Source of the DNA: Promethearchaeia archaeon
Lineage (GTDB): Archaea > Asgardarchaeota > Lokiarchaeia > Sigyniarchaeales > SOKP01
Length of the DNA: 32,000 nucleotides
Assembly: GCA_046497275.1 (NCBI GenBank)
Contig: JAWOFX010000029.1
Coordinates: forward strand, 12,792-44,791
Direction: 5' to 3'
A model generated the notes under the pieces. That model was given only the letters and a program-made list of their open reading frames with translations. It did no database searches and had not been told where the DNA came from. This document shows, in pieces, positions 7,080-26,400 of this stretch. A program made the position numbers and the translations under genes. Position 1 is the first letter of the stretch. The number at the start of each line of letters is the position of its first letter.

Positions 7080-7889
7080 TTGAAAATGTCAGATAATATA
7101 ATAATAAAAGTACGGAACTTAAAGAAATACTTCGAAAACGTGAAGGCAGTAGATGGTATCTCTTTTAATGTTAGTGAAGGGGAGGTTTTTGGATTATTAG
7201 GACCGAACGGTGCAGGAAAAACTACCACGATTAAATTACTTCTGGGTTTGCTTGAACCCAATGATGGCGAAATGGAGATATTCGGGTTAGATCCGCAACG
7301 TAATGATGTTCAAATAAAGGCAAATACGGGTTATGTCAGTGAAGAACCTTTGATATTTAAATCCTTAACACCGAAAGATATCTTCAATTTTATTGCCTCA
7401 ATCCGTGAACTTGATGAAACAAAAGTCCAAGAACGAGCTAAAGAATACTTAGAAAGTTTGGATGCTCTTGAATTCTATGATCAAATGGTTGCTACATTAT
7501 CTCATGGGAACAAACAAAAAATCCAGATTATTTCGTCAATTTTGCATGATCCTAATTTGTTAATTTTAGATGAACCATTAGCAGGACTTGATGCGAAATC
7601 AGTAAAAGTGATGAAGGAAATACTTGATATACATACTGAAAATGGAGGAGCAGTCCTATTTTCAACTCATATTATGGAGATTGCTCAAGATATTTGTGAT
7701 AGAATAGCGATTATAAATAAAGGGAAACTAGTTGGAATTGGAACCATAGAGGAATTACGAAAACAATCAGATAAATTAGGGGCGAGTTTGGAGGATGTTT
7801 TCTTACGTCTAACGGAACAAGATACATCAGTTAATGACATTGTGAAAAAATTAAGAGAATCTTTCAAGAAAAAGAAGGAGTTGATGTGA
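7080..7889 (+). CDS. ABC-2 type exporter ATP-binding subunit
   Basis: GPNGAGKT, LSHGNKQK signature, LLILDEPLAGLD, STH. The start may be the ATG at 7086. Confidence 0.95.
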   Translation: MKMSDNIIIKVRNLKKYFENVKAVDGISFNVSEGEVFGLLGPNGAGKTTTIKLLLGLLEPNDGEMEIFGLDPQRNDVQIKANTGYVSEEPLIFKSLTPKDIFNFIASIRELDETKVQERAKEYLESLDALEFYDQMVATLSHGNKQKIQIISSILHDPNLLILDEPLAGLDAKSVKVMKEILDIHTENGGAVLFSTHIMEIAQDICDRIAIINKGKLVGIGTIEELRKQSDKLGASLEDVFLRLTEQDTSVNDIVKKLRESFKKKKELM

Positions 7890-7893
7890 TCTT

Positions 7894-10491
7894 TTGGATG
7901 AAAATCTTCTTGATTTATATTCACAGACAAAATATATAACCAGAGAAGTTTTTATAGAATCTCAACTACAATCTGCTGGCTCAAACCAAGCGCGATTGCT
8001 TGAAAAGATGGAAAAAAATAAGAATTATATGCGCAATAACGTAATTGCTTTAAAGATTGTTTATGCTTTTGTTTTATCTTTTATGCCTATAATTCCTCTA
8101 ATCTCATATTTTCAAGTAAGAGAATTATTAGGAAGTGCTCCAATTGAAGCAATTATATTTACACAAAGTATCATTTTCTCAATATTCTTCGGATTAAATT
8201 TTGCGTATCTAATTCTATTCGGAATGTTAAATACAAGTTCATTTATGTCAGGAGAATCGTTCGAATGGCTACATACACTTCCGATATCTGAGAAAAAGAT
8301 GAAGAAATTAGGTTTTTTAACTATTTTTAGAAGCTTAGACCTTCCTCTTATTGTAATGATGGTATCTTTTCCTATCATTATCGTAATCGGAACTCGGGAT
8401 GTTTTATTAATGATAATTACAGCTATAGTATCTGTACCTAATGTTATTTTGAGTTTTAGTGTTTTAATATTTATCGGAGAGAAACTTAGTCGAATTCTTT
8501 ATGGAGAACAAAAAACCACTAAAAAAACAACTATTCTTAGAATGGTGACAATGATTAGTTATATACTGATGGCAATGAGTTTAGGTTTTATCATAAATTT
8601 ATCTGTTCAAGCTGTTGATTTTTTATTTAATATTTTTATAGTTTCGGAAGATATGTTAATCCTCAGCATCATTTTCACTTTAATCCCTTACCCATTCGCT
8701 CCTAGTTTTTTAATATCTAATTTTTCTGCACCCTTACAAATCTCACCTATTATTTGGACTACAACTATTATTGGTTTTATTCTTTTCGTATTATTAACGT
8801 GGATAATATATCATAAAGCAGTAAATTCACTTAAAGCAGTCACTGCATTCGAGAAAAAAGAGGAAAAAATTGAACAGCCGATAGAAAGAAAAACTGAAGT
8901 GATCCAAGTTGAAATAACAACACGAACCCCTATTATGGCATATCTTCGAAAAGATCTCACAACCGCTACAAGAGATTTTCAAACTTTTATGTTTTTATTA
9001 ATGCCTATAATTTTTCCACTTATTTTAGTTCTTTCTGGCTCAGCGGCAATAAGTTTTACGAATCCTATTCAAGATGTAATAATTATTTGGGTTTTGATAC
9101 TAGCAAGTTTGGCTTATATTCCAGCGATTTTAGTTTCAGGATTGCTTAATATGGAAGAAACAGGAGCTACTATTTTATCCTCTTTGCCTATTATCCCTAG
9201 AGATCAAGCAAAAGCAAAACTCTTATTAATGTTATCAATTCAAACTGCTTCGTTTTTAATTGCACCATTAATACTTTCCATTGTTTTTGGAGTATGGACT
9301 ATCTTTTTATTAATTGGTGCTTCCATTCCTCTCGGATGGACTTTTATGATTCTATTTTTTGAGCTTAAGATCAGGTTATTTGGACAGATGCGATATAAAT
9401 ATGTAATTGAAGAAATAAATAGGGAAAAAAAAGTTTTAAAATGGGCTGTTATGCTTATCGTAGAATTAGGTTTATTTGTTTTAGTTTTAATTATTGTTTT
9501 AAATATCGCGTTCTTAATAACCGATATTATTCTAATTTCAAGTGTTGTTCTTATAATGGGTTTAATCGGTACATTAACCACTTGGTATTCATTCAATCGT
9601 TTGTTTCCAAAACCTAAAGAAATGGGAGATTATGCAACTGGGGGTGCTCTAAGAGAAACTCCAATCATTGGAGGTGTAGTTTTAACACTGACATATTTTG
9701 GATTCCAAATCTTACCAGGCTTCTTAGAAGCGCTTCTCATACTTCTATTATTCCCTTTTTTATCATATCTGGGTTTAGTATTAATAGATTTCATTTTCAT
9801 ATTTGGTTTCTTAGCCCTCTTATTTCTATATGTAGTTCCTTTTGGATTTAAACTTCCTTTCAAGGATCGTAATTTTAGTGAATATCTTCAAGATGTCGGG
9901 TTGGGTAAGAAGCAACCGATATTTAAAAATATTTTAATTGGAGTCTGCGCTTTTATATTCTTTGTACTAATAGTAGTACCCGGTGGAGTAATTTTAGGAG
10001 ATTTTACATTTGATCTTGATATTTTATTTGGAAACCCCAATCTATCTAATCTTGGGTGGTTTTTATTCATTATTATGCTAATCCCAGGGATATGGGAAGA
10101 GTTTTCCTTTAGAGGAGTGATTATGCCAAACTTGAAAAGAAAATATTCGGATGTTTCAGTGATATTAATAAGTGGAATCATTTTCGGTCTTGCTCATTCA
10201 ATCAACTTTTTAAATATCCTTGCCGGACTAAATCCATTATATGTTGGTTTTCAAATATTCTATGCGTCGTTATTGGGTTTCAGTTTTGGATATATGTTTT
10301 TAAAAACTGGCAGTCTAATTCCTAGCATCACTTTTCATTATCTTGTGGATTCTGTTGGTCAGCTATTTTTAAATGTTTACTTTAGTAATTGGTTAACGAC
10401 ATCAATATACTTGATTGTATTTATAGGAATTCTACCAACGCTTATAACTATCCTATTCGTTAGATATATCACCAAATCAAACGAGAGATAA
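7894..10491 (+). CDS. ABC exporter permease fused to a C-terminal CPBP (Abi/Rce1-like, type II CAAX) intramembrane protease
   Basis: N-terminal ~570 aa is a two-repeat permease (WLHTLPIS, YLRKDL..ATRD, LSSLPIIPRDQAKAK). C-terminal domain has EEFSFRG, FGLAH and KTGSL...HYLVD, the CPBP motifs. Starts 4 nt after the ATPase stop. Confidence 0.85.
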   Translation: MDENLLDLYSQTKYITREVFIESQLQSAGSNQARLLEKMEKNKNYMRNNVIALKIVYAFVLSFMPIIPLISYFQVRELLGSAPIEAIIFTQSIIFSIFFGLNFAYLILFGMLNTSSFMSGESFEWLHTLPISEKKMKKLGFLTIFRSLDLPLIVMMVSFPIIIVIGTRDVLLMIITAIVSVPNVILSFSVLIFIGEKLSRILYGEQKTTKKTTILRMVTMISYILMAMSLGFIINLSVQAVDFLFNIFIVSEDMLILSIIFTLIPYPFAPSFLISNFSAPLQISPIIWTTTIIGFILFVLLTWIIYHKAVNSLKAVTAFEKKEEKIEQPIERKTEVIQVEITTRTPIMAYLRKDLTTATRDFQTFMFLLMPIIFPLILVLSGSAAISFTNPIQDVIIIWVLILASLAYIPAILVSGLLNMEETGATILSSLPIIPRDQAKAKLLLMLSIQTASFLIAPLILSIVFGVWTIFLLIGASIPLGWTFMILFFELKIRLFGQMRYKYVIEEINREKKVLKWAVMLIVELGLFVLVLIIVLNIAFLITDIILISSVVLIMGLIGTLTTWYSFNRLFPKPKEMGDYATGGALRETPIIGGVVLTLTYFGFQILPGFLEALLILLLFPFLSYLGLVLIDFIFIFGFLALLFLYVVPFGFKLPFKDRNFSEYLQDVGLGKKQPIFKNILIGVCAFIFFVLIVVPGGVILGDFTFDLDILFGNPNLSNLGWFLFIIMLIPGIWEEFSFRGVIMPNLKRKYSDVSVILISGIIFGLAHSINFLNILAGLNPLYVGFQIFYASLLGFSFGYMFLKTGSLIPSITFHYLVDSVGQLFLNVYFSNWLTTSIYLIVFIGILPTLITILFVRYITKSNER

Positions 10492-16863: not shown

Positions 16864-17145
16864 TTTACATTAGAATAAATAAATTAGCCTTAATTTTCTG
16901 TATTCAAAATTGTAATATAAAATTGATTATGTTTCATCTAGTTTTTATATAGATATTTCTTTAAAAATTCCATTATTGAATTCTATTTTTCCAAGAAATT
17001 ATTAATTCTTTAGTTGTAAAATCTAAATAGAAAGCTCTATTCCACCTTAAAGAATAAGGGTAATAAACTATAAAATTTAATACAATTTAATAATTAATAA
17101 GCACATATAATAGAATAAATATAATCGAAGAGAAGTGAAAAAAAT

Positions 17146-17967
17146 ATGGAAAATATGCAATGGGGTATGAAGAATCGTTTATCCCGTATTATTAATCCAA
17201 AAACAGGTCATTGCGTAATGCTTGCGATGGATCATGGGTATTTTGGAAATATACCCGGTCAACTTAAATGCTTCAGCGATTTAAATCCCTTATTTGAATA
17301 TGCTGATGCATTAATGCTTACAAGAGGTATGCTTAGGTCATGCGTTGCAGCGGAGATCGATAAACCAATTGTACTTAGAGTATCGGCTGGAGCCAGTATG
17401 ATGAAGGAATTATCTAATGAAGTGATTAATGTAACTATTGATGAGGCAATTAGATTGAATGTGTCGGCAATAACATGTTCTATTTTTGTTGGTGGAGAAT
17501 TTGAAAAACAAACTATTATGAATCTTTCAAAACTCGTGAATTGGGGCCAAGATTATGGGATCCCAGTGTTAGCAGTCACAGCGGTAGGGAGGGAAATGGC
17601 AAGGGATGCTAGATATTTAGGAATGGCAAGTAGATTAGCAGCAGAAATGGGAGCCAATTTTGTTAAAACATATTACTGCGATGATTTCGAAGATGTTATC
17701 GGAGTTTGCCCCGTTCCAATTGTCATTGCAGGCGGAAAAATAGATTTGAATTCCTAATCTATGCCGAAAAAAATCCCAGAAAGGGATGCCCTGCAAATGG
17801 CTAAAGATGCAATAGATAAGGGAGCCGTTGGAGTAGATATGGGAAGAAACATTTTTTTAAGTGATAGCCCTGTTGGAATGATTCAAGCAGTAAGGGAGAT
17901 TGTCCATAAAAATGCTTCTGTAGACGAAGCATACGAAATTTATCAACAAGGACCAAAAGGTCTTTAA
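17146..17967 (+). CDS. lsrF: LsrF-family class I aldolase/thiolase, interrupted by a 30-nt stop-containing insertion; predicted spliced product 263 aa
   Basis: [31 protein letters not shown], catalytic [23 protein letters not shown]. The two ORF-track fragments (17146..17757 and 17761..17967) are in the same frame. Deleting 30 nt gives [13 protein letters not shown], matching the LsrF motif IAGGKKLPE. Confidence 0.85.
17739..17768 (+). other. Candidate bulge-helix-bulge (BHB-like) mRNA intron, AATAGATTTGAATTCCTAATCTATGCCGAA
   Basis: 7-bp intron stem ATAGATT (17740-46)/AATCTAT (17756-62); 3-nt bulges 17737-39 and 17767-69; central helix CGGA (17733-36)/GCCG (17763-66) with three G-C pairs and one A.G mismatch. 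Cutting after the second nt of each bulge removes exactly 30 nt and the TAA. Confidence 0.65.
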
Positions 17968-18017
17968 AATATTATTCTCTTTTTTTTAATTTTGTTTTTT
18001 AAATATACAATAATTGT

Positions 18018-26089: not shown

Positions 26090-26162
26090 GGCCCGGTTAG
26101 TATAGTGGTTAGTATTGGGGACTGTGAATCCTTAGAAGCGGGATCGATACCCGCACCGGGCC
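26090..26162 (+). tRNA. tRNA-His (GUG), intronless, with encoded G-1 and C73; CCA not encoded
   Basis: Acceptor GCCCGGT/ACCGGGC, D-loop AGTGGTTA, anticodon loop CTGTGAA (GTG at 26124-26), T-stem GCGGG/CCCGC. Confidence 0.93.
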
Positions 26163-26400
26163 CTCACCTCTAATTTGATGTAAGTTTATTTAAGTTTCTA
26201 GGTAATCATAATAAATTTGATAAACACTTTAATTATCCATTGAAAAAATGAGAGATTAAATCTAATCAAAAAAACTATCATTATTTAATTTGTATTATCG
26301 AAATAAATTATGTTTAATAGTAAATAATACATAAATGGAAAATTAAAATCAAATATAATATTAGTTTTGATTAATTTAGTTCTATAATATAATAAAGCCT

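Follow-up and report, generated by a model that had tools for sequence, protein, structure and literature searches.

A probable endonuclease-type mini-intron in the lsrF messenger RNA of a Lokiarchaeia archaeon

The lsrF locus and its insert

The lsrF gene of a Lokiarchaeia/Promethearchaeota archaeon (assembly GCA_046497275.1) is interrupted by a 30-nucleotide (nt) insert which contains an in-frame stop codon and which is, very probably, an mRNA intron of the relaxed type removed by the tRNA-splicing endonuclease. The window analyzed is a stretch of 32,000 nt, positions 12792-44791 of contig JAWOFX010000029.1 (G000:C98:12792-44791), from an assembly of 3.85 Mb with 30% G+C and 98.9% completeness. 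Within the window the gene as a whole occupies 17146-17967 on the + strand. An open reading frame (ORF) spans 17146-17757 (+), from the ATG at 17146 to a stop TAA at 17755-17757, beyond which the same frame is open up to a second TAA at 17965-17967. Exon 1, as delimited by the ORF and its translation, comprises 17146-17738 (+), its last two bases (AA) starting a split lysine codon, the intron comprises 17739-17768 (+) in the register given by the bulge-helix-bulge (BHB) rule, and exon 2 (17769-17967, +) extends from the third base of the lysine codon through the TAA at 17965-17967 in the same frame as exon 1. Removal of 17739-17768 yields GGA AAA AAA ATC CCA GAA, and the predicted spliced junction reads GCAGGCGGAAAAAAAATCCC.

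The interrupted gene is, to judge from its protein family matches, an LsrF/DhnA-type class I aldolase/thiolase. Membership in the LsrF family (NF006081, Pfam PF01791) was judged on exon 1 of the window and on the intron-less orthologue P0002, which is 87% identical and scores 395 bits against the NF006081 cut-off of 297. Exon 1 has a Pfam DeoC match, and exon 1 alone matches the NCBIfam LsrF equivalog NF006081 with 296 bits over profile positions 30-228 of 291, the match stopping at the insert. A protein search of 5.8 billion sequences returned thousands of matches, the best 120 of which are 76-90% identical, 236-266 amino acids (aa) long and, where named, LsrF proteins of Lokiarchaeota, Promethearchaeota or Thorarchaeota. 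The insert is absent from more than 100 orthologues with 80-87% identity, and it stands out as a clean 10-codon gap, between the invariant IAGG and KKIPE, against 10 of 11 aligned orthologues. Exon 2 is intact, is approximately 90% identical to the orthologues and aligns to their C-termini, ending in GPKGL.

The insert and its borders form a compact predicted RNA fold. The exon bases CGGA (17733-17736, +) constitute the 5' strand of a central helix, H, and pair with the intron bases GCCG (17763-17766, +), which form its 3' strand, the four positions in the window being C-G, G-C, G-C and A.G. Each strand is followed by a bulge with the sequence AAA, the 5' bulge at 17737-17739 (+) with a predicted cut after 17738 and the 3' bulge at 17767-17769 (+) with a predicted cut after 17768. 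The intron stem, h', consists of a 5' arm ATAGATT (17740-17746, +) and a 3' arm AATCTAT (17756-17762, +), perfect complements over 7 base pairs (bp), with the last two bases of the in-frame TAA (17755-17757, +) lying in the 3' arm. The core of a BHB motif is present, two 3-nt bulges on opposite strands flanking a 4-position helix. The outer helix h of the strict hBHBh' form is missing, the bases at 17730-17732 (AGG) being unable to pair with those at 17770-17772 (AAA), and the motif therefore belongs to the relaxed HBh' class and not to the strict BHB class. A first-pass annotation made from the letters of the window had described a BHB-type fold at this site; its coordinates, pairings, bulges and in-frame TAA are all present in the sequence, as is the GKKIPE frame that it expected upon excision, restored by the loss of 10 codons that the orthologues lack. 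The geometry of the proposed fold stands, but without the outer helix the strict form of the motif does not.

Transcripts, orthologues and compensatory changes

The gene was found whole or in part in 15 public sequencing runs. All sampled sequence words are present in three DNA runs from two studies, and 68-88% of them are present in eight metatranscriptome runs from two studies. Assembled contigs of two RNA runs (X4, X5) and two DNA runs (X2, X9) were compared with the window over 17100-18000. The X4 RNA contig, 796 nt in length, has a single mismatch (795/796) outside a gap of 30 letters at 17737, while the X5 RNA contig, from a different study, covers 449 nt with 0 mismatches and lacks the same 30 letters at 17737. 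This gap gives the same product as removal of 17739-17768, an excision that had been predicted beforehand from the window alone and that is now matched by RNA contigs of two studies lacking exactly 30 nt at the predicted place. Because A-runs flank the site, the five cut registers with intron starts from 17737 to 17741 yield an identical product and fit the RNA contigs equally, in keeping with the earlier caution that the A-runs would permit other in-frame deletions; the exact cuts within the A-runs would be those of the BHB rule. The X2 DNA contig (Logan, 991 nt, depth 55), which may stem from the source sample itself, includes the 30 nt and reproduces the region exactly; this weighs against an artefact of assembly, a possibility named in the first-pass annotation. 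In the X9 DNA run, contigs of diverged relatives continue without the insert; this run has no contig over 17751-17781, a hole from which nothing is inferred. The X4 contig starts at 17132, immediately behind an Illumina adapter and 14 nt ahead of the ATG, and its other end falls within the gene. Coverage in RNA stays within the gene and leaves the flanks uncovered, which, together with the adapter-adjacent start, argues for a transcript rather than carry-over of DNA. Position 17132 may be a transcription start with a short leader.

Inserts of the same kind occur at three positions in lsrF genes of the family. A six-frame search of 135 family genomes located lsrF in 114 of these, the window genome included (113 of the 134 others), and several of the matches are 30 nt overlong with internal stops or end abruptly near residue 220. 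In most of these genomes lsrF is without the insert of the window. Alignment of lsrF from 47 loci together with the window revealed three insertion sites. Site A is that of the window, between GG and KKIPE, and carries a frame-keeping insert of 30 nt in the window, L003 and L047 (genome G124), and of 36 nt in L049 (genome G015), where the sequence of the hairpin differs. Site B follows GVD and precedes MGRN, and its inserts of 30-32 nt are found at 13 loci, most being 32 nt long and thus frame-shifting. Site C, after DHG and before YFGN, holds frame-keeping inserts of 30 nt in six genomes, with an outer helix of 3-4 bp present in these relatives. Every lsrF insert has a common layout, consisting of a 4-bp exon-intron helix, a 3-nt bulge, a hairpin, the return strand of the helix and another 3-nt bulge. 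Cutting both bulges behind their second base restores the conserved peptide as well as the frame in the window and in all 23 related inserts. The exon downstream of the frame-shifting site-B intron still encodes a sequence 72-91% identical in amino acids to the protein without the intron. Comparison with orthologues, which the first-pass annotation had suggested as a means of telling an intron from a decaying pseudogene, has yielded intron sites with conserved structure and an intact second exon rather than random decay.

Individual loci illustrate how these inserts are distributed and how they are read by gene callers. The database protein P0051 has a 10-residue insert at the position of site A, the gene caller having read the insert through; its contig, L003 from a Joint Genome Institute (JGI) metagenome, carries a 30-nt site-A insert without a stop as well as a 32-nt frame-shifting insert after GVD. 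Directly downstream of this doubly interrupted lsrF is an ORF of 515 aa that matches LAGLIDADG_3 faintly (L003 3849-5396, -, Ga0248667_101175). In L049 (G015:C92:483-2108, -) three mini-introns are present in one lsrF, of 30 nt at site C, 36 nt at site A and 32 nt at site B. At L051 (G101:C11) a second, partial lsrF lies at 404-826, covers residues 119-259 with one internal TGA and is situated 1.2 kb upstream of a complete gene. The exon flanks of the site-A intron were compared for signs of co-conversion or transfer along with the intron: the window and L047 are 82-83% identical beside the intron and 69-78% identical elsewhere, and the intron-less L004 is equally similar there.

The pattern of substitution follows the RNA fold. 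At site A, for which four sequences give weak statistics, the positions of helix H are C-G in three and A-U in one, G-C in all four, G-C in three and G-U in one, and, at the last position, A.G in two, A-U in one and U.G in one. Helix H is 87.5% paired in these sequences, compared with at most 46% when one strand is slid and 46% in the slipped register favoured by energy. The A.G mismatch of the window is replaced by A-U in L047 and by U.G in L049, and helix H is fully paired in both; stem h' is extended to 9-10 bp in L047 and L003 via changes in the loop region. The 'codons' of the insert change non-conservatively (N/V/K, stop/K, P/S), and the TAA of the window reads AAA in L003 and L047, indicating that the stop is not conserved whereas the RNA pairing is. 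Judged on these sequences, the site-A insert changes in the manner of an RNA hairpin and not of a peptide. At site B, 95.9% of cells are paired versus 28-41% with a slid partner, seven of 13 pairs are changed on both sides, and the observed score is not attained in any of 500 shuffles; one pair of the exon-intron helix includes a glycine codon's wobble base and is C-G at 8 loci, U-A at 3 and A-U at 2. At site C 90.5% are paired, and in four pairs both partners have changed.

Splicing enzymes, proposed mechanism and alternative explanations

Relaxed motifs are cut only by (alpha-beta)2 endonucleases with a particular loop or by enzymes of the epsilon2 type, and Asgard archaea are reported to have (alpha-beta)2 EndA with this loop (PMC5829648). 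The genome encodes two paralogues of the tRNA-intron endonuclease (EndA), ORFs of 201 aa (L001:1168-1773) and 200 aa (L002:1216-1818), both of which carry the tRNA_int_endo_N and tRNA_int_endo domains. The L001 protein has the catalytic Tyr, His and Lys and gives a gap-free alignment with the Aeropyrum pernix EndA alpha subunit (3P1Z_B; E = 3e-38), including the Crenarchaea-specific loop (CSL/L1), where SKPR stands opposite EKPR at residues 43-46 (K44, R46). K44 is required for cleavage of relaxed motifs (PMC3241643). The His is absent at the aligned position of the L002 protein, which should therefore be the structural beta subunit. By its predicted proteins, the genome encodes an (alpha-beta)2 EndA with the crenarchaeal broad-specificity loop, as a relaxed motif needs. 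Two full-length paralogues of the RtcB ligase are also encoded, at G000:C100:5154-6461 (-) and C145:7959-9266 (+).

These components allow a route from gene to protein to be proposed. Transcription of lsrF would proceed from about 17132, and in the nascent RNA the exon bases 17733-17736 would pair with the intron bases 17763-17766, with the 7-bp intron hairpin stacking alongside. The two 3-nt A-bulges so presented would be cut by the (alpha-beta)2 endonuclease after 17738 and 17768, the second base of each bulge, and the expected ends would be a 2',3'-cyclic phosphate and a 5'-OH. RtcB would then ligate the exons and probably circularize the intron, EndA and RtcB both presumably acting on lsrF mRNA and the excised intron presumably being a circle. 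The mature mRNA would read through ...IAGG KK IPERD... to give a complete protein of approximately 263 aa, while unspliced RNA would stop at the intron TAA and yield a truncated barrel. The intron is treated here as a tolerated, possibly mobile element, and evidence for a regulatory role was not seen.

That the insert is more than a chance hairpin follows from the comparative and RNA evidence rather than from the fold alone. In a 76-nt context the minimum free energy structure recovers only the 7-bp hairpin (z = -0.96, not significant), while in the isolated 37-nt motif the proposed helix and hairpin form the minimum, at -5.8 kcal/mol, with central-helix pair probabilities of 0.92-0.96. Several points weigh against an endonuclease-spliced intron. 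Helix H has only three Watson-Crick pairs plus an A.G, and the outer helix is missing. With flanks included, a rival register pairing 17731-17733 with 17763-17765 is more stable by 0.8 kcal/mol, although this register is broken in L047 and L049. Folding energy by itself is indecisive, so that it is the comparative data that discriminate. The RNA evidence consists of assembled contigs, in which neither precursor nor excised intron can show, and the RNA and DNA contigs come from different samples, such that an intron-less but otherwise identical allele is possible. Finally, a genome-wide scan for ORFs fused by this motif (see below) shows just a weak excess over controls, with too much background for a census.

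The difference in samples lends some substance to an alternative in which a recent insertion has inactivated or split lsrF in the sequenced organism and the RNA contigs derive from a sister population that never had it. The RNA runs are labelled salt lake and the DNA holders sediment or freshwater sediment, the DNA runs located belong to studies other than the RNA studies, and intron-less relatives do exist in X9. Those X9 contigs are, however, diverged in sequence, whereas outside the gap the RNA contigs agree with the window at 449/449 and 795/796 positions. A disabling insertion is also difficult to reconcile with same-site inserts in genomes of three genera, which preserve structure while their 'codons' change non-conservatively, including stop to Lys, with the conserved downstream exon behind site-B inserts (13 loci) that are mostly frame-shifting, and with an exon 2 in the window that is intact and close to its orthologues. 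This explanation is accordingly considered very unlikely. An artefact of assembly or sequencing, in which the 30 nt would not be in the DNA of the organism at all, draws on the origin of the sequence in a metagenome-assembled genome and on the A-runs at the site; it is hardly credible given the exact Logan DNA contig at depth 55 (though that run may be the source itself), the presence of all sampled words in three DNA runs from two studies, and the homologous same-site inserts in independent assemblies, namely the JGI metagenome contig and GTDB genomes.

The endonuclease-spliced intron must also be set against other fates of the RNA. Translational bypass or read-through of an unprocessed insert might be entertained for L003 and L047, whose stop-free inserts are readable as a 10-aa loop and were so read by the gene caller in the case of P0051. 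The window copy has a TAA, the RNA contigs are without the 30 nt, the 32-nt site-B inserts are unreadable in frame, and the insert evolves as an RNA hairpin and not as a peptide, leaving this explanation next to no likelihood. Group I and group II introns have ribozyme cores of hundreds of nucleotides. Self-splicing introns of these groups were considered as candidates and rejected, the insert being far too short at 30 nt and the Rfam matches in the window amounting to one tRNA and no intron family. A more general form of this alternative, removal of the 30 nt by means other than EndA and RtcB, for example by an unknown nuclease and ligase or by self-cleavage, takes its force from the assignment to EndA resting on geometry and from a motif that has no outer helix and includes an A.G mismatch. 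The exact EndA signature (4-bp helix, 3-nt bulges, second-base cut) nevertheless recurs at three lsrF sites and in the other genes checked, and the genome has the enzyme class that accepts relaxed motifs (PMC5829648, PMC3241643), so that removal by a different machinery appears quite improbable. The reading of the first-pass annotation, a spliced protein-gene intron in an ordinary metabolic gene, is supported by the RNA contigs, the comparative data and the enzymes.

Similar introns in other genes and known splicing systems

The lsrF intron is probably part of a lineage-wide population of mini-introns of 29-36 nt in protein genes. The best-structured candidates from the genome-wide scan were checked by separate Pfam scans of both exons, and no fewer than five additional genes in the genome are split by introns of this kind: those for RNA polymerase A', TFS, UbiA prenyltransferase, a Ras-like GTPase and a nucleoside phosphorylase. 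The inserts in other genes are 29-32 nt long and share the helix-bulge-hairpin layout. In RNA polymerase A' (C83:1644-1673) the Rpb1_1 profile is matched over 2-73 and then 74-312, exactly continuous across the joint. In the Ras-like GTPase (C45:12870-12898) Ras is matched over 1-57 and then 60-161, and in UbiA (C111:36455-36426, -) the profile is matched over 3-48 and then 53-231, both with a gap in the range of 2-4 positions. The joint in the nucleoside phosphorylase (C171:12136-12166) rebuilds a DKHS-T-GG motif. An ABC ATPase (C59:8285-8316) is probably likewise interrupted, between DEPT and TGVD, this motif being the sole support since the profile match goes no further than the joint and the second exon is without a Pfam match. 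(These five loci are L052-L056.) In TFS (C130, L062 approximately 1559-1610) the TFIIS-type zinc ribbon is broken by an insert of 30 nt, the profile stopping at 27/39; the helix of the insert is AAUG/CAUU, its bulges are ACA and AAA, its stem has 9 bp, and its joint rebuilds ADEGMT-HFIVCLRCG. Two other candidates are not counted, a thiolase (C105) with weak Pfam continuity and a CdhA-like gene (C46) in which such continuity is absent.

The scan itself combined an H-B-h'-H-B motif with a test for ORF fusion and returned approximately 7,900 matches at the predicted register, compared with 7,500-8,400 when the register was shifted as a control. Restricting the scan by ATG, by A-rich bulges or by Watson-Crick content brought no improvement. 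In the class with the tightest limits (28-34 nt, 8 or more Watson-Crick pairs, loop of at most 10) there are 13 matches versus 2-3 in the cleanest control class, other control classes having held the same real loci in slipped registers. The search for other split genes with this fold that the first-pass annotation had envisaged has therefore produced such genes, though not a census of them. It is likely that the family holds many endonuclease-spliced mini-introns of 29-36 nt, in ordinary as well as core information-processing genes and with several independent sites per gene, that have been gained or lost repeatedly among genera.

The closest known counterpart is the intron of crenarchaeal cbf5, like that of lsrF a short intron within a gene that codes for a protein (Watanabe 2002; Yoshinari 2006; Yokobori 2009, PMC2738675). 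As of 2009 (PMC2738675) and again as of 2020 (PMC7714728), cbf5 was the only confirmed case of archaeal pre-mRNA splicing in a coding region. The two share an often relaxed BHB motif, a hetero-oligomeric endonuclease and patchy gain and loss among relatives (PMC2738675). They differ in that cbf5 encodes an RNA-modification enzyme in Crenarchaeota, whereas the lsrF intron is found in Asgard archaea in the gene for a metabolic aldolase, where there are up to three intron sites in the one gene, similar introns in several genes and a uniform length of 29-36 nt. Mechanistically the lsrF intron is of the same kind as that of cbf5, and what sets it apart is the lineage, the multiplicity and the similar introns in core genes. 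The first-pass annotation knew of no such description in Lokiarchaeia, and a literature search, the coverage of which is incomplete for subscription journals, turned up no account of endonuclease-type introns in the protein genes of Asgard archaea. An mRNA is also a substrate of the splicing endonuclease in Haloferax volcanii, where HVO_1309 has a BHB element in its 5' untranslated region (PMC7714728); that element is in an untranslated leader, whereas the lsrF intron interrupts a codon in a conserved active-site loop.

In eukaryotes, HAC1 and XBP1 mRNAs lose a small intron independently of the spliceosome, through endonuclease cuts in stem-loops and joining by a tRNA-type ligase. The likeness to lsrF lies in the small mRNA intron and in an endonuclease working with a tRNA-type ligase and no spliceosome, and a link of RtcB to splicing of this type is given through a cited reference (PMC5829648, ref. 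5). The HAC1/XBP1 endonuclease is Ire1, and the process is stress-regulated, whereas regulation is not indicated for lsrF.

An Asgard metabolic gene would, on the evidence for a spliced lsrF, require endonuclease-type splicing to give a complete protein. Should the family indeed hold a whole population of such mini-introns, protein expression would routinely depend on RNA splicing in the closest prokaryotic relatives of eukaryotes, and the tRNA-splicing endonuclease would be a general mRNA-processing enzyme in this lineage. Gene callers report such genes as truncated, as split or with odd 10-residue loops, as in P0051, so that Asgard proteomes and pseudogene counts are distorted. The lsrF intron and its relatives make it possible to test how introns spread among protein genes of the lineage that stands nearest to eukaryotes, whether a broad-specificity endonuclease permits such spread, and in what way splicing is compatible with transcription and translation being coupled.

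Non-canonical tRNA introns of Thermoproteales and Asgard archaea share with the lsrF intron the motif, the presumed enzymes and the small size (PMC11291895; bioRxiv 10.64898/2026.10.13.758758; PMC5829648). The host RNA of the lsrF intron is instead an mRNA, in which the frame is set, and a stop codon taken out, by splicing. Asgard lineages are rich in non-canonical tRNA introns, as described in papers that treat tRNA genes only (PMC11291895; bioRxiv 10.64898/2026.10.13.758758). In the present genome, 98.9% complete as it is, aragorn detects no more than 19 tRNA genes, and several of these calls are doubtful. So low a number agrees with reports that Asgard tRNA genes are heavily interrupted; introns at non-canonical positions probably break up most of the tRNA genes here and keep them from detection. 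The sole RNA-family match within the window is a tRNA-His(GUG) gene at 26091-26163 (+), which is uninterrupted.

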